Positions 1-52,177 of a DNA stretch of 52,177 nucleotides are shown piece after piece. The translations under genes and the position numbers were made by a program. The stretch lies in the IMG/VR virus record IMGVR_UViG_2563366958_000018. One strand, written 5' to 3'. The stretch comes from a virus (taxonomy: Duplodnaviria; Heunggongvirae; Uroviricota; Caudoviricetes). Each line of letters starts with the position of its first letter. The first letter of the stretch is position 1. The notes beneath the pieces were generated by a model. That model searched no databases. It had not been told where the DNA came from and saw only the letters and a list, made by a program, of their open reading frames with translations.

Positions 1-3000
1 ATGCCTGTCGACTTTCTAACCTCTGACCAAAAACAGAATTACGGTTGTTATGCTGCAGAACCTAATGACGTGCAACTGGCGCGCTATTTTCATCTTGATG
101 AACGGGATCTGGCCTTCATTAACCAACGACGGGGCAAACATAATAGGCTGGGCATTGCGCTTCAGCTCACCACAGCCCGTTTTCTGGGAACATTTCTGAC
201 GGATTTAACTCAGGTTCTGCCTGGTGTTCAACATTTTGTCGCGGTACAGCTTAATATCCACCGTCCAGAAGTTCTCTCCCGCTATGCTGAACGGGACACT
301 ACCCTTAGAGAACATACTGCATTAATTAAGGAATATTACGGCTATCATGAATTTGGTGATTTTCCATGGTCTTTCCGCCTGAAGCGTCTGCTATATACCC
401 GGGCGTGGCTCAGTAATGAGCGACCGGGTCTGATGTTTGATTTTGCCACTGCATGGTTGCTTCAAAATAAGGTATTACTGCCCGGAGCAACCACACTAGT
501 ACGTCTCATCAGTGAAATTCGTGAAAGGGCAAATCAGCGGCTGTGGAAAAAGCTGGCCGCACTGCCGAACAAATGGCAGGCAGCTCAAGTGATGGAGCTT
601 CTGGTCATTCCGGAAGGTCAGCGTGTATCAGCACTGGAACAGTTGAAAAAAGGCCCTGTTACAGTCAGTGGACCTGCGTTTAATGAGGCGCTGGAACGAT
701 ATATCCGATTACGAAGTCTTGAGTTTTCCCGACTGAACTTTTCCGGTCTGCCTGCCATTCAACTGCGTAATCTGGCTCGTTATGCTGGCATGGCGTCGGT
801 AAAATATATCGCTCGAATGCCACAGCAGAGAAAGCTTGCTGCACTTACTGCATTCGTTAAAGCACAGGAAATAACGGCATTAGACGATGCCGTTGATGTG
901 CTTGATATGCTAATTCTGGACATTATCCGCGAAGCAAAGAAAACCGGGCAAAAAAAAAGACTCAGGACACTGAAAGATCTTGATCAGGCCGCATTGTTAC
1001 TGGCGCGGGCATGTGCATTGTTGCTGGATGATAATACAGATGTCCCAGATCTCAGGCAGGTTATCTTCAAGTGCGTACCCAAAAACAGACTGGCAGAATC
1101 TGTAAGCAAGGTTAATGAACTTGCTCGTCCACAGAACAATAATTTCCATGACGAAATGGTTGAGCAGTACGGTCGGGTTAAACGTTTTCTTCCGGCGGTG
1201 TTGCGGGACCTGCATTTCCGTGCGGCACCGGCAGGTGAACATGTACTGGCTGCGATTCATTATCTGGCAGAACTGAATGGTTCGAAAAAGCGCATCCTTG
1301 ATGATGCGCCTGAACATATTATCACCGGTCCCTGGAAACGCCTCGTATACGATGCGGAGGGACGGATACAGCGTGCAGGTTATTCACTATGTTTGCTGGA
1401 ACGCCTTCAGGATGCACTGCGCCGCCGGGACATCTGGCTTGAAAACAGTGATCGCTGGGGAGATCCTCGCGAGAAGTTGTTGCAAGGTGAAGAGTGGCAG
1501 ACTCAGCGTATTCCTGTCTGTCGGGCACTGGGACATCCTGTCGATGGACGTAAAGGTGTGCAACAACTGGCTATTCAGCTGGATGAGACCTGGAAAGCCG
1601 TGGCATCACGATTTGAAAAGAATGCGGAAGTTCATATCTGTAATGAAGGTAAATATCCATCCCTGACTATCAGTTGTCTGGAGAAACAGGAAGAGCCACC
1701 ATCATTGCTTCGTCTAAATAATCGGATCAAACAGCTACTCCCACCGGTAGATTTAACGGAACTGTTACTTGAGATAGATGCCCAGACAGGATTTACACAT
1801 GAGTTTGCGCATGTCAGTGAATCTGGTGCTCGAGCGCAAGATTTGCACATCAGTTTATGTGCGGTATTGATGGCTGAAGCCTGTAATATCGGACTGGAGC
1901 CGCTGATAAAGCACAATATACCAGCACTGACCCGCCATCGGCTCAGTTGGGTGAAACAGAATTACCTTCGTGCAGAAACGCTGGTCAGCGCCAATGCCCG
2001 CCTGGTTGATTTTCAGTCCACACTGGAGCTTGCTGGTCGTTGGGGAGGTGGAGAAGTGGCATCAGCTGACGGCATGCGCTTTGTCACACCAGTGAAGACC
2101 ATCAACTCAGGATCTAACAGAAAATATTTTGGTTCTGGACGAGGCATCACCTGGTATAACTTCGTATCTGATCAGTACTCTGGGTTCCATGGCATTGTGG
2201 TACCCGGTACATTACGGGATTCGATTTTTGTACTGGAAGGACTTCTTGAGCAGCAGACAGGGCTGAATCCAGTTGAAATCATGACAGACACTGCGGGTAG
2301 CAGCGATATTATTTTCGGTCTGTTCTGGCTACTGGGGTATCAGTTTTCCCCCCGGCTTGCCGATGCAGGTGAGGCGGTGTTCTGGCGGGTGAATAAATCG
2401 GCAAACTACGGAGTACTGGATAAGTTGGCCCGAGGATATGCAGATCTGTCAAAAGCGGAGAGTCAGTGGGATGAGATGATGCGAACCGCTGGTTCGCTGA
2501 AGTTGGGTACAATTCATGCGTCAGAACTCATTCGCTCTTTACTGAAAAGCTCGCGCCCATCAGGACTGGCACAGGCAATTATGGAAGTAGGGCGTGTAAA
2601 CAAAACGCTATATCTCCTCAATTATATTGATGATGAAGATTATCGTCGGCGGATCCTGACGCAGCTTAATCGAGGAGAAGGCCGCCACGCTGTGGCTCGT
2701 GCGATTTGTTACGGACAACGCGGAGAGATCAGAAAGCGTTATCGTGAAGGGCAGGAAGATCAACTGGGGGCGCTGGGCCTGGTTACTAATGCAGTGGTTC
2801 TGTGGAACACGCTCTATATGGAGGAAGCGTTGAGCTGGATGCGCCGTAATGGCGAAGAAATTATAGATGAAGATATCGCTCGGCTATCTCCCCTGATGCA
2901 CGGGCATATCAATATGTTGGGCCATTATACATTCACGTTGCCAGAGGATATTTTAAAAGGGGAACTGAGAGCTCTAAATTTAAATATAAACAACGAATTA

Positions 3001-3009
3001 TCTCCTTAA
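1..3009 (+). CDS. tnpA: Tn3-family transposase TnpA (Tn1000/gamma-delta-like), 1002 aa
   Basis: Full-length ORF starting MPVDFLT; conserved Tn3-family TnpA blocks (RPGLMFD, GGGEVASADGMRFV, LSPLMHGHINMLGHY); stop codon lies inside the terminal IR as in Tn3-family elements. Confidence 0.9.
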   Translation: MPVDFLTSDQKQNYGCYAAEPNDVQLARYFHLDERDLAFINQRRGKHNRLGIALQLTTARFLGTFLTDLTQVLPGVQHFVAVQLNIHRPEVLSRYAERDTTLREHTALIKEYYGYHEFGDFPWSFRLKRLLYTRAWLSNERPGLMFDFATAWLLQNKVLLPGATTLVRLISEIRERANQRLWKKLAALPNKWQAAQVMELLVIPEGQRVSALEQLKKGPVTVSGPAFNEALERYIRLRSLEFSRLNFSGLPAIQLRNLARYAGMASVKYIARMPQQRKLAALTAFVKAQEITALDDAVDVLDMLILDIIREAKKTGQKKRLRTLKDLDQAALLLARACALLLDDNTDVPDLRQVIFKCVPKNRLAESVSKVNELARPQNNNFHDEMVEQYGRVKRFLPAVLRDLHFRAAPAGEHVLAAIHYLAELNGSKKRILDDAPEHIITGPWKRLVYDAEGRIQRAGYSLCLLERLQDALRRRDIWLENSDRWGDPREKLLQGEEWQTQRIPVCRALGHPVDGRKGVQQLAIQLDETWKAVASRFEKNAEVHICNEGKYPSLTISCLEKQEEPPSLLRLNNRIKQLLPPVDLTELLLEIDAQTGFTHEFAHVSESGARAQDLHISLCAVLMAEACNIGLEPLIKHNIPALTRHRLSWVKQNYLRAETLVSANARLVDFQSTLELAGRWGGGEVASADGMRFVTPVKTINSGSNRKYFGSGRGITWYNFVSDQYSGFHGIVVPGTLRDSIFVLEGLLEQQTGLNPVEIMTDTAGSSDIIFGLFWLLGYQFSPRLADAGEAVFWRVNKSANYGVLDKLARGYADLSKAESQWDEMMRTAGSLKLGTIHASELIRSLLKSSRPSGLAQAIMEVGRVNKTLYLLNYIDDEDYRRRILTQLNRGEGRHAVARAICYGQRGEIRKRYREGQEDQLGALGLVTNAVVLWNTLYMEEALSWMRRNGEEIIDEDIARLSPLMHGHINMLGHYTFTLPEDILKGELRALNLNINNELSP

Positions 3010-3042
3010 CGTACGTTTTCGTTCCATTGGCCCTCAAACCCC
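3005..3042. repeat. 38-bp Tn3-family terminal inverted repeat (Tn1000-like)
   Basis: CTTAACGTACGTTTTCGTTCCATTGGCCCTCAAACCCC is the reverse complement of a GGGGTTTGAGGGCCAATGGAACGAAAACGTACGTTAAG-type IR; overlaps the tnpA stop. Confidence 0.85.
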
Positions 3043-3843
3043 GATCTTTACGAGGTTGACGTAATAGTCATGGGGTAAGTTTGTCATGGTGATAGTTCCC
3101 TTAAAGGTTAAGGATACTCACCACCGTCTGGTTCCAATCATTGGGTGGTGAGACGTACAGGGTTGGAACTACCGGTCACCATGGAATCCGGCGAGTCTTA
3201 CGACTCCCCCGCACGCCCCACCATAATTTGGGTGTAGCAGTGCTTTACGCATAAAAAAACCGCTAACGCGGTATGCGCCATGATGATTATCGGGGTTCCA
3301 ATCCCGACCGTAGATTTTGCTACGGCTCGGAAAGTGTCCACCAATGGCGCATTCATGTCAATACGGCGGGATTTTAACAGAGACAACCACATAGCGTGGG
3401 TTTATTGGTAGGCAGAAACAAAAAAACCGCCCTATTGAGGACGGTTCTTTCGTGCTGATCGGATTCGCGGTCCTTTCAGCATAACGTCGTTGTATAAACA
3501 ACCACGCAAGCACAAGCAGCAAGTTAATTTTACCCAAAAGGTAATAATAGTCCACTATTATGCTTCAAAAAATTGTGGTTCTTGTTGTGCCTGCAAACTC
3601 ACAGATTGTGGGTAGGTTACTGATTTTGTGAAAATAAACGAGTTTTTTCGTTTAATTTCTTTCCTATTACTAATCTTAAAATAATCGTAAAATACCTGTG
3701 GACCTTCCCGCCGATTCGCACCCGGGCACCGACTTTAGGGGAGGATTCTCCGTTGCCGTACATGCAAGCACAAGCAGCCGTGCTTGCTCTCGCGTTGTTT
3801 TCGTCGGTGGGGATGCCGTGAAACGGCCTGTAAGGGCCATACA

Positions 3844-3966
3844 ATGAAAAAATACTGTATGTGTATTTTTATCGTTGTTACTGGGGCTTTGTTTACGCCA
3901 CATGGGGAGGGTTGGAAGATTACTGATAACGCTCTGAATGTGACGATAAACATTAGCAGCAAGTAG
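3844..3966 (+). CDS. Small hydrophobic ORF (40 aa, MKKYCMCIFIVVTGALF...), hypothetical
   Basis: ATG with weak upstream purine tract; single hydrophobic segment; followed directly by a strong hairpin plus T-run. Confidence 0.2.
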   Translation: MKKYCMCIFIVVTGALFTPHGEGWKITDNALNVTINISSK

Positions 3967-3971
3967 CGATT

Positions 3972-3995
3972 AGGCCCCTTCGGGGGCCTTTTTTA
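3972..3995 (+). terminator. Rho-independent terminator
   Basis: AGGCCCC-TTCG-GGGGCCT stem followed by TTTTTT. Confidence 0.5.
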
Positions 3996-5687: not shown

Positions 5688-5722
5688 GCGTAGCCTCTTT
5701 TATACTTTTACATGTTGTCAAA

Positions 5723-5737
5723 ACCACAAAATGTGGT
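5723..5737. promoter_or_regulatory. CI-type operator (ACCAC-AAAAT-GTGGT), OL-like
   Basis: Perfect 5+5 inverted repeat matching the operator consensus seen in the cI-cro intergenic region. Confidence 0.5.
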
Positions 5738-5779
5738 TTTTTTGAGCGTAGAAATGCACGGCTTTCGCCGTGCTGTGTA

Positions 5780-6436
5780 TCATAACCAGTTGACAACACT
5801 AACTACGCGGCCAAGAACTTTATAACGCTTAAATTCCTCGTTATTCAGATGCTTAGTGTTCATTTCAGCATCCCTTTCGGTTGACAGCATAACAGCATTG
5901 TCACCCGGTATGACTCTACAGTGCCTCAAAACAACCAGGCCATTTCTGTCTTCAAGGGCATAGATCCCCTCATGAATCTCTGTATCGTCTGTATTAATCA
6001 GGACTTGGGAGCCTGGGGATATTGTTGGTGACATTAACTCATCGTTGCTCTGGAGAACTGACAGAGACGATGGGTTGATGTTCTTGCTTCGTAGAATCTC
6101 CTGTTCTATCGCCAGCACTGGCTTTTCTCCGGCGTGCGATGCTATGTCATTTTTTATAGCTACAAGCCCAGGAATAACAGGAGCGTTAGTATTCTGGGGT
6201 GGGAACGGGTTATCTGTTAAGCACGCGATATAAGGCGCTGATGCTTTCAGGGCGTGCGCGATTTTCTTGATGGCAGGTATAGATGGTTGTCTTAATCCGG
6301 CCTCATAGTTCTGCAAGGTGCTTAAGCCTATTCCAGTGACTTGCTGGAGATCTCCGGCAGTCATGCCGGATTGTTTCCGTAGAGTCTGAATGCGCAGACC
6401 TATTTCTTTCTTGATGTTCTCGTCGTTGCTTTTCAT
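5780..6436 (-). CDS. cI: CI-like phage repressor (XRE-type HTH + S24/LexA-like autopeptidase domain)
   Basis: N-terminal HTH (LRKQSGMTAGDLQQVTGIGLSTLQNYEAG), Ala-Gly cleavage-site candidate, Ser (LMSPT) and Lys (KVLGRV) of the S24 dyad; divergent from the Cro-like gene. Confidence 0.85.
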   Translation of the reverse strand: MKSNDENIKKEIGLRIQTLRKQSGMTAGDLQQVTGIGLSTLQNYEAGLRQPSIPAIKKIAHALKASAPYIACLTDNPFPPQNTNAPVIPGLVAIKNDIASHAGEKPVLAIEQEILRSKNINPSSLSVLQSNDELMSPTISPGSQVLINTDDTEIHEGIYALEDRNGLVVLRHCRVIPGDNAVMLSTERDAEMNTKHLNNEEFKRYKVLGRVVSVVNWL

Positions 6437-6473
6437 GTCTCATCAATCGTGAATGGTGGGTTATTTATACATT

Positions 6474-6591
6474 ACCACATTTAGTGGTTTTCACATGGTA
6501 AGACGAGAGGTGGACCACAAATAGAAGGTTATTTTTTGTTTCGCCCATTGAAAAACTCACGATATGTGGTTTTAATACCACATATCGTGGT
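6474..6591. promoter_or_regulatory. OR-like operator region: three ACCAC-N5-GTGGT palindromes between cI and the Cro-like gene
   Basis: ACCACATTTAGTGGT (6474-6488), CTCACGATATGTGGT (6556-6570), ACCACATATCGTGGT (6577-6591). Confidence 0.6.
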
Positions 6592-6610
6592 TTTAACTGG
6601 AGTTCGTTAA

Positions 6611-7105
6611 ATGACCTTTCAGGAGTGGGTTGACGAAAATGGAGGCCAAATTGGTGTTGCCAGAAAGTTTGGCTTTACGTCATCACTGATTGGTGCCTGG
6701 TATCGCTTCGAGAGATTCCCTCGTGCGGATAACCTGACGCTGCTGGTGGCGTATTCGGAAGGCCGGATTAACGTCCAGCAATGGGCGGCAGATTTTGCCG
6801 AACGTCAGCGCCAGCGTAGCGATGGCACATCGGTTCGGCAGAACAAGATCAAAGGGAATCTCCCTGTTAACTGCTTATCAAGGCTGAAAGCGGTTTTCTC
6901 TGAGCTGGGGATGCCTGCGGAGCGTTGCAATCTACGCGGTCCGCGATTCATTGCTCGCTGGAAACACTCACATGTAACCGTTTCAGAGGTTCGTGATGCG
7001 ATTACCGTGCTGGAGCTTAAGAATAAAGATTCCAGCGATATCGAGCTGATTCATAAGGAGATTAGCAACGCCCGGCGTTCAGCACTTGGGAGGCTTGAGG
7101 AATGA
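6611..7105 (+). CDS. Cro-like HTH regulator (N-terminal HTH, 164 aa)
   Basis: Divergent from cI across the operator region; HTH-like segment GGQIGVARKFGFTSSLIGAWY. Confidence 0.5.
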   Translation: MTFQEWVDENGGQIGVARKFGFTSSLIGAWYRFERFPRADNLTLLVAYSEGRINVQQWAADFAERQRQRSDGTSVRQNKIKGNLPVNCLSRLKAVFSELGMPAERCNLRGPRFIARWKHSHVTVSEVRDAITVLELKNKDSSDIELIHKEISNARRSALGRLEE

Positions 7106-9010: not shown

Positions 9011-9130
9011 AAAATCTATAAATATATAATTATAGATTTATATAAAAAGTGCTTTACAGGTGGGAAAAAATTTCCTATGGTTATACCCGAAACCGAGCGA
9101 TACCCGCCCTGGTTAAACCGGAGAAATCTG
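9011..9130 (+). promoter_or_regulatory. Conserved promoter/operator/leader cassette, copy 1
   Basis: AT-rich palindrome + TTTACA-N17-TATGGT + 50-nt leader ending GGAG-N8-ATG; near-identical copies at 15968-16081 and 48828-48941. Confidence 0.5.
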
Positions 9131-10198
9131 ATGAATAAACAAGTAATTATTTCTGACTGGATCAACAACCCTAACAGCCTGTTAAGCACTGATACTGGCT
9201 ACCTATTACGCCATGTTAATGGTCGTATGGTCAAAAGCGATGAGCACGAAACCTTTTTCTTTGTTGAAGACGATGGGCGTATCTATGAGGATGGTTACTC
9301 TTATGAAGCCCAAACTGGTTGTATCCCTGCGGAGCTGGTGGATGTAACAGAAGATCTGCGCAAAGCATGGCTTGAACAGCAGCAGCGCGGAGATGATTAC
9401 GTAAACACCTATCAGGAACGCCAGAACGCGCGTCTTGCCCGATATATTGCTCGTGCAGAAAAAGCCAGAAAAGAAGGTGCGGTAGCGCATAAGCGAGCGC
9501 ATGACCTGTTGGATGTGATCCCGTTAGGCCAGCCGATTTTAGTTGACCATTATAGCGCGAAAGGCCATCGCCGCCGTTTGTCTAAAGCTGATGCGTTATT
9601 CAGAAAAGCGTTTGTTGAATGCGAAAGTAAAGCATCACACTACGAGAGCAAAGCCGCAGGTGTTGGTCGTAATGGAATTTCGTCTGATGATCCTGATGCG
9701 CTATTTAAGTTGCTTCGTAAGCTGCAAGGCTGCATGAAGTCACACGTCAAAATGAAGGCCGCAAATAAGGCCATTCGCAAATACAAAAAAGACCAAATAC
9801 AGCAGCTTTCTGCATTAATCGATCTCAGGTTTACAGAAAGCGAAGCCAAAGAGTTACTGGCCGGAGATTTCTGTGGGCGCATCGGATTCCCTTCATACGC
9901 ACTGAGCAACAATAACGCCGAAATCAAACGACTACAGAGCCGTATTAAGGAGCTTGAATCGGTCAAGTCTGTAACAGGAGCACAGCGCGAAGAATACGAC
10001 GGCTTTTCTATGGAGATAGATCCAGAGGATAACCGCATCCTGTTTTATTTCCCTGGCAAACCAGAGGCAAACATTCGTTCGCTGCTTAAATCACGCGCCT
10101 TTAAGTGGAGTCCAACCCGTAATGCATGGGTTCGCAAGATTACTCCAAACGCCCTGGCTGATGCCCGATATCTGAAAGAATCGCTATTGAAAGCCTGA
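9131..10198 (+). CDS. DUF3560-like protein (355 aa)
   Basis: GQPILVDHYSAKGHRRR and C-terminal FKWSP...NAWVR segments resemble DUF3560; start taken at the ATG after the conserved leader rather than the in-frame ATG at 9077. Confidence 0.55.
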   Translation: MNKQVIISDWINNPNSLLSTDTGYLLRHVNGRMVKSDEHETFFFVEDDGRIYEDGYSYEAQTGCIPAELVDVTEDLRKAWLEQQQRGDDYVNTYQERQNARLARYIARAEKARKEGAVAHKRAHDLLDVIPLGQPILVDHYSAKGHRRRLSKADALFRKAFVECESKASHYESKAAGVGRNGISSDDPDALFKLLRKLQGCMKSHVKMKAANKAIRKYKKDQIQQLSALIDLRFTESEAKELLAGDFCGRIGFPSYALSNNNAEIKRLQSRIKELESVKSVTGAQREEYDGFSMEIDPEDNRILFYFPGKPEANIRSLLKSRAFKWSPTRNAWVRKITPNALADARYLKESLLKA

Positions 10199-15000: not shown

Positions 15001-15076
15001 GGCCCCTTAGCTTAGTGGTTAGAGCAGGCGACTCATAATCGCACGGTCATCGGTTCAAATCCGGTAGGGGCCACCA
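15001..15076 (+). tRNA. tRNA with CAU anticodon, most similar to tRNA-Ile2 (ileX-type, lysidine-dependent AUA decoder); could also be a Met tRNA
   Basis: Cloverleaf folds: acceptor GGCCCCT/AGGGGCC, anticodon loop CUCAUAA, T-loop TTCAAAT, 3' CCA encoded. Confidence 0.85.
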
Positions 15077-15383: not shown

Positions 15384-15971
15384 ATGGAGGCAATTGCATT
15401 GTTTAATCTGATTTATGCAGATCCCCCCTGGGAATACAAAGATAAGTGTAAGGATGGGAATCGTGGAGCTGGTTTTAAGTATCCAACGATGAAAGCTGAG
15501 GATATTGCTCGTATTCCTGTCTGGCAGCTTGCTAATCCTGAATCGTGTTTGTTGGCCATGTGGTGGGTTCCGACTCAGCCAGAAGAAGCGTTGCTGGTGG
15601 TGAAAGCATGGGGATTCAGGCTTATGACCATGAAGGGCTTCACATGGAACAAATGTGGTAGCCGACAACCAGATAAGCTGGTGATGGGGATGGGGCATAT
15701 GACTCGTGCAAACAGTGAAGATTGCTTGTTTGCGGTAAAAGGCAAATTGCCGACCCGCCTTGATGCGGGGATCATTCAGTCGTTTACATCGCCTCGTCTG
15801 GAGCATTCTCGGAAGCCTGATGTGGTTCGTGACAAGCTGGTAAGGCTGTTAGGTGATGTTCCTCGTATTGAGCTGTTTGCTCGCGGTGATTTACCTGATG
15901 GTTGGCATGGCTGGGGCAACCAGTGCAATGGAGGTATCCAGTTGCATGATGCTCTCTGGCAAGTGGCATAG
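15384..15971 (+). CDS. MT-A70-family N6-adenine DNA methyltransferase (orphan)
   Basis: Catalytic DPPW motif (IYADPPWEY), 195 aa; no adjacent restriction endonuclease. Confidence 0.8.
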   Translation: MEAIALFNLIYADPPWEYKDKCKDGNRGAGFKYPTMKAEDIARIPVWQLANPESCLLAMWWVPTQPEEALLVVKAWGFRLMTMKGFTWNKCGSRQPDKLVMGMGHMTRANSEDCLFAVKGKLPTRLDAGIIQSFTSPRLEHSRKPDVVRDKLVRLLGDVPRIELFARGDLPDGWHGWGNQCNGGIQLHDALWQVA

Positions 15972-35543: not shown

Positions 35544-36534
35544 AACGCTTTTTGATGTTATATATCAGAATGTAAATATTACCGCTCATATGTCACCTGA
35601 TGTTTTGTCAATGTCTTATACAGATAATGAAGATGGTCAGGTCGATGATATTTCTATTATATTAAAAAATGATGATGGGAAATGGTCTGGAGACTGGACA
35701 CCTAAAAAGGGTGATTTTATTGATTTGAGCTTTAAGCCTATAAATCAAATCGTCCTTGAGTGCGGGAAATTCCAGGTAGATGGCATAACTTGCTCTGGAC
35801 CACCTTCTGTGGTTGAGGTAACTGCTGTTTCTGTTCCTGTTTCATCAGGCATTAGACGTGATTTAAAAAGTAATGCATGGGAAAAAACAACTCTTAAAGA
35901 TATAGCAACTTCTATAGCTAAATTAGCTAACCTTGAACTGTTGTTTCTTATTGATGGTGATAGTAATCCATATTATGCGCGTGAAGATCAAATGGAGGAA
36001 AGCGATTTAAAATTTCTCCATCGACTTTGCCAGGATGAAGGGTTGTCGTTAAAGGTCACTGATAGCCAATTAATAATATTTGCTCAAGAGATGTTTGAGC
36101 AAAAAGATCCTATCGCTACGCTTACGTTAGGTATTGATGAGATAATCAGATATAGCTTTAGCACACAATCTACAGATTTGTATAAAAGTTGCACGTGCAA
36201 ATATCGCGTACCTAAAAAAAGAAAGTCGCTTTCGTATACTTGGGTAGATCCATCCGTAGAAGAAGGGTCGAATCTTAAGATAAGAAAACTGGTAGCTAAT
36301 TTAGATGAAGCAAAACGTAAGGCAAAGGCTGCTTTGCGGCTTAAAAATAGATATCAAAATACCGGATCTTTAGTATTGGTTGGAGACACCAGATTGGTAG
36401 CTGGTGTAACTATAAATCTGGAGGGATTCGGTTCATTTTCTGGAAAATATCTTATATCGAAAGCTGTGCATTCAATTGGGACTAGTGGTTATACCACCTC
36501 GATTGATGTCCGAAGAGTAATTAATGGGTATTAA
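35533..36534 (+). CDS. Baseplate hub/late control gpD-like protein
   Basis: 333 aa, position after tape measure and X; GTG start. Confidence 0.55.
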   Translation: MLRKTLFDVIYQNVNITAHMSPDVLSMSYTDNEDGQVDDISIILKNDDGKWSGDWTPKKGDFIDLSFKPINQIVLECGKFQVDGITCSGPPSVVEVTAVSVPVSSGIRRDLKSNAWEKTTLKDIATSIAKLANLELLFLIDGDSNPYYAREDQMEESDLKFLHRLCQDEGLSLKVTDSQLIIFAQEMFEQKDPIATLTLGIDEIIRYSFSTQSTDLYKSCTCKYRVPKKRKSLSYTWVDPSVEEGSNLKIRKLVANLDEAKRKAKAALRLKNRYQNTGSLVLVGDTRLVAGVTINLEGFGSFSGKYLISKAVHSIGTSGYTTSIDVRRVINGY

Positions 36535-43451: not shown

Positions 43452-43489
43452 AGGGGTCTGACGCTCAGTGGAACGAAAACTCACGTTAA
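43452..43489. repeat. Tn3 38-bp terminal inverted repeat (bla-proximal end)
   Basis: GGGGTCTGACGCTCAGTGGAACGAAAACTCACGTTAAG. Confidence 0.9.
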
Positions 43490-43599
43490 GGGATTTTGGT
43501 CATGAGATTATCAAAAAGGATCTTCACCTAGATCCTTTTAAATTAAAAATGAAGTTTTAAATCAATCTAAAGTATATATGAGTAAACTTGGTCTGACAG

Positions 43600-44472
<873 letters not shown>

Positions 44473-44642
44473 TCAATATTATTGAAGCATTTATCAGGGT
44501 TATTGTCTCATGAGCGGATACATATTTGAATGTATTTAGAAAAATAAACAAATAGGGGTTCCGCGCACATTTCCCCGAAAAGTGCCACCTGACGTCTAAG
44601 AAACCATTATTATCATGACATTAACCTATAAAAATAGGCGTA

Positions 44643-45222
<580 letters not shown>

Positions 45223-45637
45223 AAGATAATCATGTGACCAATTATTGTAATAATTTTAATGGTATGTTTCTACTGGCTATCCAGCGTGTCTGATATCCAG
45301 TAACAAATCGTCAACACGGGTGCAATCAAATAGTGAGTGTTAAGACTGACCACTTATTACCAGGTATGAGTGGCCAGCATTAAATCAGAACAGCCCTTTA
45401 ACTGAACTGGCCGCGCTGTTAAGGGATGATGTCACCTTATCTTTGAAGCCGGACAGCATATTGCTGAACGATGAGTTTACCGCAGGTTTCTGGCTGGGAA
45501 TCATTGACTGGAGTTAGGCCAGTAGTATGATGCTCGCAAAACGAGATCCAATTTAGATCCTTTTACTGGTGGATTATCGTTCGATCAGTGAGAGACTTCG
45601 TGCATGACCGAAAGTGTTGTGGTAGAGTTCTCTTAAA

Positions 45638-45652
45638 ACCACGTAACGTGGT
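45638..45652. promoter_or_regulatory. CI-type operator palindrome (ACCAC-GTAAC-GTGGT) in the repA promoter region
   Basis: Perfect match to the ACCAC-N5-GTGGT consensus (extended AACCAC/GTGGTT), about 40 bp upstream of the repA leader, overlapping a TATGAT -10 candidate. Confidence 0.4.
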
Positions 45653-45688
45653 TATGATTGTGGGTGTCTGGTTGGAAAGTGACCAGAT

Positions 45689-46669
45689 ATGGAAACAAAA
45701 AGCCCGCAGATAAATCTGCGGGCTTCTTGCGACATCCACGGAAAACCAACAACAACAATCCATGGGCGCCTCGACAACTCCCATTATACGTTGGTTTTCC
45801 GTGGACGCAAGAGCGAACATATGGATAGACCAATGCCGTCTCTACGTTCAGCTTACGTTTGTAATTTGTCGCCGGAGTTCCAGCCTCCAAAGCACCATAC
45901 GCACAAGCTGCCGCTGGTGTTATCTGATGCTTTACAGCGCATTAATGGGCGTGATCTTACGTGTGAGGTTGCGTTCTACGTTAATCAACCGTCAGAGCGG
46001 AAGCGCCGGATAAACGAGCATCGTCGTCGGGCGATTAATGCTGTGATCGCTGCGATTTTGCACCATGTAAACATCATTTCTAAGCGGGTTCTGGCTAGTG
46101 CTGAGGCGTTGGCTGATTTTTGCGGCCTGTCTACCGTATCCGAAGCTGGGAACAAGTCTATAACGCGCTGTACAAGGGCGTTGTCGCAACTGAAAGCGTT
46201 AGGTTTTATTGATTATGAACGTCGCTGGGATCGGGTGAATAAACAGTATTGGCCAGCGAAAATAGAGATTCGTGATCAACTGCTGGAAACCGTTGGTATT
46301 ACTGAACAAGCATGGAGACGTGCGGTTAGCCAGAAACTTAATTACTTCAATGCGAAGAATAGCGAACGGCTTAAAAAAGCGATAACGGAGGCTGATTATA
46401 AGCGTATTGTTATTCAGGAGCAGATGGAGAATGTATGGCGTCAGAGGAAGACGGCCAGAGAGATAAAGGCAAAACAGAAAGCAGCGGAGAGAGCTGCGCG
46501 TCTTGTTCGGGAAAAGGGAGAGGCCGAACTTCGTCATCAAATCACCAGAGAGGTTAGTCAGGAATTTGCTGATGGCATGTATCCTGGTGCTGACCTTGCA
46601 TATTTACGATCCCTCGTTGAGCAGCGTTATAACAGGTTAAGAAAGACCTGGAAATCACTCCAACATTAA
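45689..46669 (+). CDS. repA: Plasmid replication initiator RepA (IncFII RepA1 / I-complex RepZ family)
   Basis: Conserved RRRAINAVIAAILHH and CGLSTVSEAGNKSITRCTRALSQLKALGFIDY blocks align with IncFII RepA1 as recalled; likely true start at ATG 45821 (282 aa), with 45689-45820 being leader. Confidence 0.85.
   Translation: METKSPQINLRASCDIHGKPTTTIHGRLDNSHYTLVFRGRKSEHMDRPMPSLRSAYVCNLSPEFQPPKHHTHKLPLVLSDALQRINGRDLTCEVAFYVNQPSERKRRINEHRRRAINAVIAAILHHVNIISKRVLASAEALADFCGLSTVSEAGNKSITRCTRALSQLKALGFIDYERRWDRVNKQYWPAKIEIRDQLLETVGITEQAWRRAVSQKLNYFNAKNSERLKKAITEADYKRIVIQEQMENVWRQRKTAREIKAKQKAAERAARLVREKGEAELRHQITREVSQEFADGMYPGADLAYLRSLVEQRYNRLRKTWKSLQH
45699..45810 (+). promoter_or_regulatory. repA leader with two strong hairpins (candidate antisense-RNA target / translational control region)
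   Basis: AGCCCGCAG-ATAAAT-CTGCGGGCT (45701-45723) and CCACGGAAAACCAAC...GTTGGTTTTCCGTGG (15-bp stem, 45736-45804). Confidence 0.35.
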
Positions 46670-47300
46670 CCCACCTGAATGATGAATCCGGTTTTACCGG
46701 AGGATTATCTACGTCGCAATAAAATATCTGTTCAAAAAACAATCTAAATTAATTTTCTCTAAACCTGAACACAGCAAAAATATCGCCTTTACAGGCATCG
46801 GCTAATAAAGTTATCCACAGTTCTGATATGTATATGCAAATGGTTTTTTATAATAGATGCACTAAACAAATAAATGCAAAATCACTTTCTTTTATTAAGA
46901 CTTTCTTTATTTAACTTACGCAGGCTTTGCCTGTGAATATGTTCGCCCTTGCAGCGAGCTAAAGCTCGCGCCGGTTCGAGTCGCTACGCTCAAATATACC
47001 TCCTCCGGCACTTGCCGGAGGCATGGAGCAGCCTGATCATCCTTTTCGAAACGGCACGTTTCGAACTATACAAAATCAATTTATATAAGGCCGAAATAAG
47101 GCCTACGGCCGGGCTTTGCAGGAGGAAGGGGCGAGCCTTATCAATAAACGTCGATAAATACGCACACAGTAGCCATCAGAACGCGATAAAATGTAAGAAA
47201 CATCATTTCCTATTAGACATAGAAAACTTGTCTTATACGCAATGTAGTAAATTTCTATTGCCACATAGGAAAAGATTTCCTACCATCGTAGATATAATAA
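46670..47300. other. Probable replication origin region downstream of repA (AT-rich, DnaA box)
   Basis: TTATCCACA at 46811-46819; AT-rich tracts and GC-rich hairpins (for example CGAAACGGCACGTTTCG). Confidence 0.4.
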
Positions 47301-48131: not shown

Positions 48132-48479
48132 ATGTGGACGGTACTTTTTAGCCAGCGATTTGACGACTGGCTAAATGAGCAAGAAGACGCTCTTCAGGAA
48201 AAGGTTTTGGCTGATTTGAAAAAGCTACAGGTTTACGGACCTGAGTTACCCAGGCCATATGCCGATACCGTAAAAGGTTCTCGGTACAAAAATATGAAAG
48301 AGCTTCGCGTTCAGTTTTCTGGCCGTCCGATAAGAGCCTTTTATGCGTTCGATCCGATTCGCCGGGCCATCGTTCTTTGTGCAGGAGACAAAAGTAACGA
48401 TAAGCGGTTTTATGAAAAACTGGTGCGTATAGCTGAGGATGAGTTTGCAGCACATCTGAACACACTGGAGAGCAAGTAA
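48132..48479 (+). CDS. RelE/ParE-superfamily toxin (HigB / Gp49-like)
   Basis: 115 aa, toxin-first gene order, TAATG coupling to a downstream HTH antitoxin. Confidence 0.6.
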   Translation: MWTVLFSQRFDDWLNEQEDALQEKVLADLKKLQVYGPELPRPYADTVKGSRYKNMKELRVQFSGRPIRAFYAFDPIRRAIVLCAGDKSNDKRFYEKLVRIAEDEFAAHLNTLESK

Positions 48480-48778
48480 TGAGAACATTAGATGAGGCGA
48501 TTGCCAGCCGTTCACCTGAAAGCCAGGCGCGAATTAAAGAAATGGCAGATGAGATGATTCTTGAGGTCGGCTTGCAGATGATGCGTGAAGAACTCCAGTT
48601 ATCACAAAAACAGGTTGCTGAGGCGATGGGTATAAGCCAGCCAGCAGTAACAAAGCTGGAGCAGCGCGGAAATGATTTAAAGCTGGCGACATTAAAGCGT
48701 TACGTTGAAGCTATGGGAGGCAAATTAAGCCTGGATGTTGAGCTTCCCACAGGAAAACGAATAGCGTTTAACATCTGA
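48479..48778 (+). CDS. HigA-like XRE-family HTH antitoxin
   Basis: HTH (LQLSQKQVAEAMGISQPAVTKLE) in C-terminal half; coupled to upstream toxin. Confidence 0.6.
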   Translation: MRTLDEAIASRSPESQARIKEMADEMILEVGLQMMREELQLSQKQVAEAMGISQPAVTKLEQRGNDLKLATLKRYVEAMGGKLSLDVELPTGKRIAFNI

Positions 48779-49952: not shown

Positions 49953-50213
49953 ATGACGGGTTACGAATTGAAATTATGGCGTCGTGGGATGAACTGGACG
50001 CAGGAGCGAGCCGCCGAAGAGTTTGGGATATCGTTGGCTACATATAAGCGATATGAGAAGGGTGAGCCGCCGAGGGTCATTGAGATGGCCATTCGCGTTC
50101 TGTCGTTTGACGATATGGTTAAGGATCTTTCACACCTTGATAAAGATGTGATTCTGTTAAGGCTGCAAACCCTTGTATGGGAAAAGGTTAAAGTGTCGTC
50201 AGAATTGGAATAA
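49953..50213 (+). CDS. XRE-family HTH transcriptional regulator (86 aa)
   Basis: HTH (MNWTQERAAEEFGISLATYKRYEKG); GAGGA RBS. Confidence 0.55.
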   Translation: MTGYELKLWRRGMNWTQERAAEEFGISLATYKRYEKGEPPRVIEMAIRVLSFDDMVKDLSHLDKDVILLRLQTLVWEKVKVSSELE

Positions 50214-51034: not shown

Positions 51035-52177
51035 TTATGGTCTGCTTTTCTGTGCCAGCTTATCAGCACATGTTTTTATCAGATCCTGTAGTGTCTTGGC
51101 TGGCAGGTTTGCATCCAGTACGCTGAGTATGCTGTTGTGATCAGCTTGGTCGACTACTTTGCCTGTCGGTGGTAGTAGCTTGAGCTGAGGATTCAGGTTT
51201 TCGTCAAAGCTGATAAGTGCTCTGGCGTTTCTGAGCAGATCAAGAAGTAAGGCTGATATCACATTTTCCTGAGTCATTGCTGGCAGATTTAGCGCCGCTT
51301 TGGTTTTCCCTGTTGCCTTGTCAAACGCCTTGATTAGTTCCTTCCTGTAGTTCGGTTCCGTTAATAGCCGATTATGCTCTGTTGCCGCGCGGATAATCGT
51401 TTTTTCCTGGTACAGTCGTTTAGCCAGATCACGCTCGTACTGTGTTTTTAACACGCTGCTGATAGCGTTAAAGGCTTCAATGTAGGCCAGCTTGATATCT
51501 TTCACGCTTGGACCGTCGATGCTCTCCATGAGCAAGGTAAATCCGTCTTTTGTCATGCGATAGATTGTTATTTCGCGGTCGCTTCCTTCCAGCGGTCGTT
51601 GCTCTTTAAAGAAGTGACGCGCCGCAGCCGTGCGAGGAATGCGTAGCGCATCGATGGCCATAACGATGGAATTGTTTGTGGTGCTGAATGCTTGGGCAAC
51701 ATCGGCTGAGGTTGTGAGTGGCTCGTTGTTGCACACTTTAATGTAAAACATCGGTTTGGCGTTGAGCGTATCGACAACCTCACGAGCATTGTTTGGCGAG
51801 ACGGTTACGGTCGCGGCCGTTTGCGCGTTCTGGCTGAAATAGCAGTCTTCCAGCCGTTCGAATACATCCCACGCCTGATCGGTTTCGAGCATTTTGGCGT
51901 GACGTGCAGCCCCGCGTTCTGTCCAGAGAATGAGGGAGCGGGCATTTTTACCAACTAACCCGATTGTTTCAGGTCTGTTCTTGAACTCGCGTAATTCGTT
52001 TTTTTCAATTTTAAAGTAATGCTTTCCGGCTATGAATCGCGTCGTGTTGTTCAGAAAGTTATCAGAAATGTTTTTGATTTTTGTTCCGTATAACTGCGCC
52101 AGAAGTTCAGTTGTAATAACGGGGATCTGGTTATGCAAGATAGGCTGTAGGGTGTTAACGGTCGGAAGCGTTTTCAT
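51035..52177 (-). CDS. Phage antirepressor (AntA/ORF6N-type N-terminal domain, Rha-like central region)
   Basis: 380 aa; N-terminal ITTELLAQLYGTKIKNISDNFLNN...RFIAGKHYF; start codon is the last three bases of the window so the true start may lie beyond it. Confidence 0.7.
   Translation of the reverse strand: MKTLPTVNTLQPILHNQIPVITTELLAQLYGTKIKNISDNFLNNTTRFIAGKHYFKIEKNELREFKNRPETIGLVGKNARSLILWTERGAARHAKMLETDQAWDVFERLEDCYFSQNAQTAATVTVSPNNAREVVDTLNAKPMFYIKVCNNEPLTTSADVAQAFSTTNNSIVMAIDALRIPRTAAARHFFKEQRPLEGSDREITIYRMTKDGFTLLMESIDGPSVKDIKLAYIEAFNAISSVLKTQYERDLAKRLYQEKTIIRAATEHNRLLTEPNYRKELIKAFDKATGKTKAALNLPAMTQENVISALLLDLLRNARALISFDENLNPQLKLLPPTGKVVDQADHNSILSVLDANLPAKTLQDLIKTCADKLAQKSRP

Follow-up and report, generated by a model that had tools for sequence, protein, structure and literature searches.

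A perfect 17-bp palindrome in the leader of repA, the replication gene of an Escherichia coli phage-plasmid, shares its consensus with the operators that flank the element's own CI-like repressor gene. Its place in the CI operator family and its link to repA are well supported by computation. We put at roughly 0.6 the probability that CI at this site, here called O-rep, blocks the proximal repA promoter and that loss of CI raises the RepA level and the copy number. CI would then bind O-rep and repress repA, and its removal would be felt in copy number and in lytic replication. The stretch of DNA analysed, 52,177 nucleotides in all, is referred to as the window.

Phage-plasmids must reconcile low-copy inheritance with lytic amplification. 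The route from the lysis-lysogeny switch to the replicon has been worked out for very few of them, N15 being the case confirmed in the literature. If the present reading is true, a phage repressor has taken over the position of CopB in an IncFII-type copy-number circuit, and induction signals or mutations in operator or repressor would raise the dosage of carried resistance genes such as blaTEM.

The phage-plasmid and its replicon

The window is a ~47-kb E. coli phage-plasmid of the myovirus type plus Tn3/TEM pieces. Its repA region is shared by 71 PLSDB plasmids 32-52 kb in size, almost all of them from Escherichia and almost all non-mobilizable, and by three GenBank entries deposited as infectious phage isolates (Yersinia phages vB_YpM_39, vB_YpM_41 and vB_YpM_44). 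The replicon was found in 71 of 5,426 complete E. coli genomes and was plasmid-borne every time. Records of the family are circular, and annotated relatives have the gene order head, tail and baseplate genes, repA, a toxin-antitoxin pair, an antirepressor, parA, an HTH repressor and a divergent early operon. The uninterrupted relative used for comparison was pE1-5 (L015). The repA gene follows the tail-fibre/invertase region and is not adjacent to cI, from which it is separated by ~10 kb in the uninterrupted relative.

The family was not named after pSLy3, an element of about 100 kb; that name was rejected because pSLy3 belongs to the SSU5 supergroup, a separate group of elements. A literature search that included accessions and phage names, together with searches of the library, found no paper describing this phage-plasmid family. 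The markers of a 2025 survey of phage-plasmids in clinical Enterobacteriaceae were those of the P1, D6, SSU5 and N15 groups only, so the present family falls outside that screen.

The replicon has the following parts downstream of O-rep.

45693-45812, minus strand: predicted CopA-like antisense RNA, with a long hairpin (45737-45806) and a terminator hairpin (45700-45730) with a T-run
45833-46669, plus strand: repA, 278 aa, with the start taken from Salmonella annotation (E. coli records use an in-frame start at 45689)
46811-46930, no strand: probable oriR, a DnaA box (46811-46819) and then an AT-rich stretch

RepA matches the Pfam family IncFII_repA (PF02387, 1.3e-43) and the NCBIfam model RepA_IncFII_LM (NF040977, 232 bits against a cut-off of 70), and fails the strict incFII_RepA model (TIGR03474, 79 bits against 447). 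The replicon is IncFII/LM-like. Folding of the leader's minus strand (45815-45690) gives two hairpins and a terminator at -68 kcal/mol (z = -9.2), and both hairpins and the antisense loop CGCCTCGAC are conserved in the lineage alignment. Rfam gave no CopA match at gathering or relaxed thresholds, only sub-threshold look-alikes of a generic hairpin-plus-terminator kind on the minus strand, and the promoter scan called no clear antisense promoter. From its fold and conservation the minus-strand leader RNA is predicted to be transcribed.

Plasmids R1 and R100, of the IncFII group, have a CopA antisense RNA and CopB, a repressor of the proximal repA promoter. The plus strand from 45476 to the leader holds no open reading frame of copB size, the longest being 41 aa and overlapping the operator. 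The original prediction had noted that a copB-like gene is missing where IncFII-type replicons normally use CopB. The absence of such a gene is confirmed; since RepA passes the broad RepA_IncFII_LM model and falls far below the strict one, the remark on normal use of CopB holds for IncFII proper only.

The window's only perfect DnaA box, TTATCCACA at 46811-46819, begins 140 bp past the repA stop. Together with the AT-rich DNA it sits where the origin of an R1-type replicon would be. Searches of the early region with Pfam and PHROGs turned up no further gene recognisable as a replication initiator. A 373-aa DUF3560 protein of the early operon (9077-10198) partially matches a PHROG annotated as primase, and is the sole hint of a second replication function.

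The palindrome upstream of repA and its operator family

Operators of the family were found at six sites, which are listed in order of position. The sites other than O-rep were placed by motif and weight matrix, and none is assigned to a strand.

3385-3401: operator with one mismatch, upstream of the isrK-C4-antirepressor transcription unit, which is on the minus strand
5722-5738: perfect operator between the cI terminator hairpin and the orf124-parA operon
6473-6489, 6555-6571 and 6576-6592: three operators between cI and the early operon, which starts at 6611
45637-45653: O-rep, predicted CI-type operator in the repA leader, a 17-bp perfect palindrome, AACCACGTAACGTGGTT

The symmetry of O-rep is perfect, 8+1+8, and can be written AACCACGT-A-ACGTGGTT. 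Its arms AACCAC and GTGGTT around the spacer GTAAC are present as originally predicted, an exact match to the consensus. The interval given then, 45638-45652, is the inner 15 bp; the full 17-mer is one base wider on each side. Exact matches to AACCAC-N5-GTGGTT number two in the window, at 5722 and 45637, against 0.01 expected from dinucleotide shuffles. The earlier judgement that a chance match is unlikely is borne out by this count, and its estimate of order 0.1 expected was conservative. With up to two mismatches there are nine matches against 1.69 expected, and none of 100 shuffles reaches nine. The other matches cluster at the repressor gene (6473, 6555, 6576 and 5722), with a further one at 3385, upstream of isrK/C4. 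The gap between cI and the early operon, which holds three of them, is 174 bp.

A weight matrix was trained only on the three intergenic sites between cI and the early operon (6473, 6555 and 6576). O-rep scores 21.5 bits with this matrix, which exceeds the training sites and ranks second among all 17-mers of the 52 kb. The scan found six sites at 17.4 bits or more and a next best of 14.2 bits; the highest value reached by any of 200 shuffled windows was 18.0. The site upstream of the replication gene shares the consensus of the operators flanking the repressor gene, in the window as well as in the Salmonella, Serratia-type and L014 genomes. The assignment of O-rep to the CI operator family is well supported.

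Some lesser sites were seen. The best operator-like site outside control regions, GACCACCTTCTGTGGTT at 35798-35814 (14.2 bits), is within a baseplate/VgrG-like gene and is probably due to chance. Weaker operator-like sites are at 3597 and 3564. The operator at 5722-5738 is kept in a Salmonella relative (L002, at 34524) and is represented by tandem half-sites in the Serratia-type lineages. No convincing promoter could be placed near it; through this predicted operator CI may regulate the partition genes too.

Seven lineages were compared: E. coli, with many copies; Salmonella L002/L009, with CI 65% and RepA 86% identical; L010/L028, with RepA 81% identical; Serratia L003/L013, with CI 33-36% identical, depending on the method, and RepA 32%; and L014, L030 and L031, with RepA 30-33% identical. 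All seven have an invariant TGnTAGAGT and, 8-9 bp on, a site with an invariant GTGGTT arm. The site spacer varies among lineages (GTAAC, GTTGT, GATGT, GAAAT or AATTT). Three lineages have AACCAC as the second arm; in the remainder this arm is C-rich (ACCCC, CTCCC or CACCC). Only one arm of the repA site is good in the Serratia-type lineages. O-rep itself is invariant across all E. coli copies examined.

Genome by genome, the repA site is similar to the operators that flank the resident cI. L014 has AACCCCAAATTGTGGTT as its OR site and GCTCCCAATTTGTGGTT as its repA site, and TGTGGTT occurs there six times in 17 kb, five of these in the cI, par and repA control regions. In L003, CGAAATGTGGTTTT is found both upstream of par and upstream of repA. 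Among plasmids, viral contigs and metagenomes we found no relatives with a different repressor specificity, all retrieved lineages sharing the GTGGTT half-site; a scan of genome contigs gave no hits. The recognition-helix region of CI (STLQNYEAG) hardly varies among the three aligned CI proteins, in keeping with the invariant half-site.

The nearest non-phage replicon examined, of the pKPC_UVA01 type (L032, RepA 37% identical), has a similar TGaTAGATT, and no such palindrome follows it. None was found upstream of repA in an F-like plasmid from Rouxiella either. It therefore seems that the operator was added in the phage-plasmid lineages specifically. The small upstream open reading frames of these non-phage relatives gave no NCBIfam match, and those of the pKPC_UVA01 type, which were also run against Pfam, gave no match there.

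Promoters, repressor and proposed control of replication

The region between the upstream genes and O-rep has two candidate promoters.

45504-45531, plus strand: predicted distal promoter P1, TTGACT-16-TATGAT, from the promoter scan, with 10 of 12 consensus positions
45545-45586, no strand: GATC-rich inverted repeat with three GATC sites, between P1 and P2, conserved across lineages
45620-45628, plus strand: predicted proximal promoter P2, an extended -10 element TGgTAGAGT, invariant in all aligned lineages

In all aligned lineages the site lies 8-9 bp after the invariant P2 element. A conserved TGC (45601-45603) is 17 bp upstream of this -10 element, at the expected place of a -35 element. 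The consensus promoter scan did not call P2, because its -35 element is weak, and the evidence for P2 is its conservation. With a transcription start ~7 bp past the -10 element, the operator would span about +1 to +18, where repressors typically block RNA polymerase. P2 is probably a real promoter with a start near 45635.

The original prediction had used a different -10 element, TATGAT, with the operator overlapping the spacer before it. TATGAT does follow the site, at 45653-45658, but it is not conserved: other lineages have TATGAA, TAAGTA, TTTGAG or TTCCGG, and two E. coli copies from metagenomes (L017 and L027) have TACGAT immediately after the operator. TATGAT was rejected as the conserved promoter element. 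The broader claim, that the repressor controls replication, gains from the operator family, the position before repA and the promoter-adjacent conservation, and is to be corrected in its promoter detail and its remark on CopB.

P1, 110 bp upstream of the site, is a stronger sigma-70 match than P2. Its hexamers are kept in most lineages (Salmonella and Serratia-type) and less well in L010. With P1 upstream, repA may stay active when the proximal promoter is repressed: transcripts could come from P1 with or without CI on the site, provided that bound CI does not stop elongation as well. GATC clusters are also found upstream of repA in the non-phage plasmid L032, and control of repA by Dam methylation or SeqA is possible.

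The proteins of the switch are encoded elsewhere in the window.

5780-6436, minus strand: cI-like prophage repressor, 218 aa, with an N-terminal HTH_3 domain and a degenerate S24-like C-terminal domain
51035-52177, minus strand: antirepressor with ORF6N and Rha domains (domain match), likely inactivator of CI

The HTH_3 match of CI to Pfam covers residues 16-69 (4.5e-11), and the match to Peptidase_S24 is sub-threshold (18.4 bits, cut-off 23.3). BLASTP gave no alignment of CI with LexA, and in a search of solved structures the C-terminal half of CI was not covered by any match. Judged by motif spacing relative to LexA, conserved Leu134 and Arg171 of CI would sit at the places of the LexA catalytic Ser and Lys. 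These features suggest a repressor incapable of self-cleavage, as has been reported for CB of N15. In an intact relative the antirepressor gene is directly downstream of the C4 region. Rfam places C4 antisense RNA, isrK and ryfA next to one another (3141-3401 and 3698-3994), and the region looks like an immI module of the P1 type put under a lambda-type repressor. The lack of a clear self-cleavage domain in CI, together with an antirepressor behind an operator-bearing C4/isrK module, makes induction by antirepressor likelier.

The mechanism we propose draws on this anatomy and on what is established for R1 and N15. In the prophage-plasmid state CI on 45637-45653 would close P2, leaving RepA to be made from P1 only, under the brake of the CopA-like antisense RNA (~45812 to 45693, minus strand), and copy number would be low. 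Once CI is inactive, P2 would fire, RepA would rise beyond the hold of the antisense RNA and replication from oriR (~46811-46930) would increase, providing templates for lytic growth; the ORF6N/Rha antirepressor is a more probable cause of that inactivation than self-cleavage. CI would stand in the place that CopB has in R1-type replicons, and would act like the CB repressor at OL-repA of N15. Since no other initiator is recognisable in the early region, the rise in RepA and copy number may also drive lytic replication, and the DUF3560 protein leaves room for a separate lytic replication function. That one IncFII-like replicon serves both plasmid maintenance and lytic DNA synthesis, with the repressor replacing CopB as the switch between antisense-limited and runaway states, is a more tentative proposal, which we regard as possible but rather doubtful.

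Two alternatives deny the site any protein partner. Short palindromes do occur, and O-rep might be a chance match with no function, but the excess of exact matches, the failure of any shuffled window to reach the O-rep score and the conservation of its position down to 30% RepA identity reduce the chance of this to almost nothing. The palindrome might instead act as a hairpin, either a 5' stem-loop stabilising the repA mRNA or a DNA cruciform, and resemble an operator only incidentally. The sense leader of E. coli is indeed predicted to begin with a 7-bp hairpin made by the palindrome, and 81% of the cells in a 6-bp helix are pairable across lineages. However, the seven-lineage alignment has no compensatory changes, with drift in the 5' arm and none in the 3' arm; one of the pairs cannot form in four of the seven lineages; and the matrix score of 21.5 bits goes beyond mere palindromy. 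Free drift of the spacer without compensatory changes fits a protein site with half-site recognition rather than a hairpin. A hairpin in the E. coli lineage is compatible with the alignment, which gives no support for selection on pairing, and as the explanation of the site it is very improbable.

Other alternatives keep a protein partner and change its identity or its task. In lambdoid switches CI and Cro use the same operators, and a Cro-like lytic repressor recognising this motif would be indistinguishable from CI by the sequence of the site. The partner at repA could accordingly be a Cro-like repressor from the early operon, where the first gene (6611-7105) has no assigned function, or one of two small HTH_3 proteins encoded 3-4 kb from repA (48479-48778 and 49953-50213). 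Against this, the motif clusters near cI, the HTH protein encoded at 48479-48778 adjoins a Gp49/RelE-like toxin gene and looks like an antitoxin, and the Cro proteins of N15, phiKO2 and PY54 do not bind the repA operators (PMC4997575, PMC4488713); we think a partner other than CI distinctly unlikely. A little better, though still unlikely, are the prospects of a true CI operator whose main role lies elsewhere, in immunity or incompatibility toward incoming homo-immune genomes or as a partner in looping or oligomerisation, with transcription from P1 reading through so that steady-state repA levels would hardly depend on the site. The stronger promoter upstream of the site favours this, as do the operators spread over four control regions (3385, 5722, 6473-6592 and 45637). 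In phiKO2, CB is reported to form tetramers and probably octamers (data not shown by those authors), who describe long-range cooperation between OR and OL as a matter not yet known either way (PMC4997575). The distance of 8-9 bp from a conserved -10 element, fixed in every lineage, is the geometry of direct promoter occlusion, and as a looping partner needs no fixed position, this spacing counts against looping.

Occlusion of the proximal repA promoter by CI, the reading we prefer, has a precedent. In N15 and phiKO2, CB binds two OL operators overlapping the repA promoter, represses repA and lowers the copy number (PMC4997575, PMC4488713). The N15-type precedent invoked by the original prediction is thus borne out for N15 and phiKO2 (PMC4997575), and the logic by which a repressor controls replication is already established. 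The present case differs in replicon class, in virion type and topology, in its single distant operator, and in a predicted antisense circuit without CopB. Like CB, as reported, the present CI has no clear motif for self-cleavage, and the element has an antirepressor module that includes a small RNA. Phages of the N15 type are linear siphoviruses, whereas the present element has a circular genome of the myovirus type, with no protelomerase annotated in relatives (by their annotations). In N15-type phages repA adjoins cB with OL between them (PMC4997575), whereas here a single operator is ~10 kb from cI in the uninterrupted relative. The present RepA is of the IncFII/LM family with a predicted antisense RNA in its leader, and the operator differs in sequence, being a 17-bp site, AACCAC-N5-GTGGTT.

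Comparison with R1 and R100, for which we rely on established knowledge, gives the same Pfam family of RepA, two tandem promoter candidates, a strongly structured leader region with a predicted countertranscript, a DnaA box past repA in the probable oriR, and a palindrome, a putative protein site, at the proximal promoter. In contrast to R1 and R100, there is no copB between the promoters, the palindrome matches phage operators and the leader RNA has no Rfam CopA match. As in lambda, a repressor with an N-terminal HTH domain is divergent from the early operon, with three 17-bp operators of 6-5-6 symmetry and more elsewhere. The differences from lambda are the sub-threshold S24 match of the C-terminal domain and the extra operators at repA, the par operon and the C4/isrK antirepressor operon. 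In P1, which has separate plasmid and lytic replicons, C1 controls the lytic replicon (repL), and the immI region has a C4 RNA and an antirepressor. The present element is like P1 in being a phage-plasmid with dispersed operators for a master repressor, one of them at a replication function, and in having a C4-type RNA (by Rfam) upstream of an antirepressor; it differs in having only one recognisable initiator gene, of the plasmid type.

Transposon cargo and gene dosage

A replicon with dual use, were it real, would have consequences for cargo genes: partial loss of CI, expression of antirepressor or operator mutations would give rise to high-copy subpopulations, and cargo such as blaTEM would show copy-number heteroresistance. 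Term counts for a preprint of 2026 that deals with heteroresistance and phage-plasmids in E. coli (10.64898/2026.08.19.745698) are 41 for 'repA', eight for 'repA promoter', 11 for 'copA' and two for 'TEM-1', and zero for 'repressor', 'operator', 'IncFII' and 'copB'. Going by these counts, the preprint may concern a related replicon without invoking a repressor.

Compared with pE1-5 the window has an extra 1.56-kb Tn2/Tn3 remnant with blaTEM (43453-45015) and a separate Tn3-family tnpA (1-3042). The remnant is made up as follows.

43453-45015: Tn2/Tn3 remnant with a terminal inverted repeat
43600-44460, minus strand: blaTEM
44643-44975: truncated resolvase gene

The remnant interrupts an acetyltransferase gene just upstream of the replicon and has a 5-bp target duplication relative to the intact pE1-5. 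Both the Serratia phage-plasmid L003 and the non-phage plasmid L032 also have blaTEM-1, located 1.4-2.3 kb upstream of repA.

The other piece has a Tn3-family transposase gene beginning exactly at base 1 and its own, different terminal repeat (GGGGTTTGAGGGCCAATGG...). It stands in place of ~390 bp of pE1-5 that hold a small open reading frame and the 5' end of ant, and the last codon of the window is the ATG of the antirepressor gene (51935-52177 region). If the window is a closed circle, the Tn3-family piece parts the antirepressor from its isrK/C4 leader and CI-controlled promoter, and inducibility of the antirepressor may be impaired in this copy.

A tRNA gene (15001-15073, 65.8 bits with the Rfam tRNA model) lies shortly past the lysis genes and upstream of a gene for an MT-A70 methyltransferase (15384-15971).
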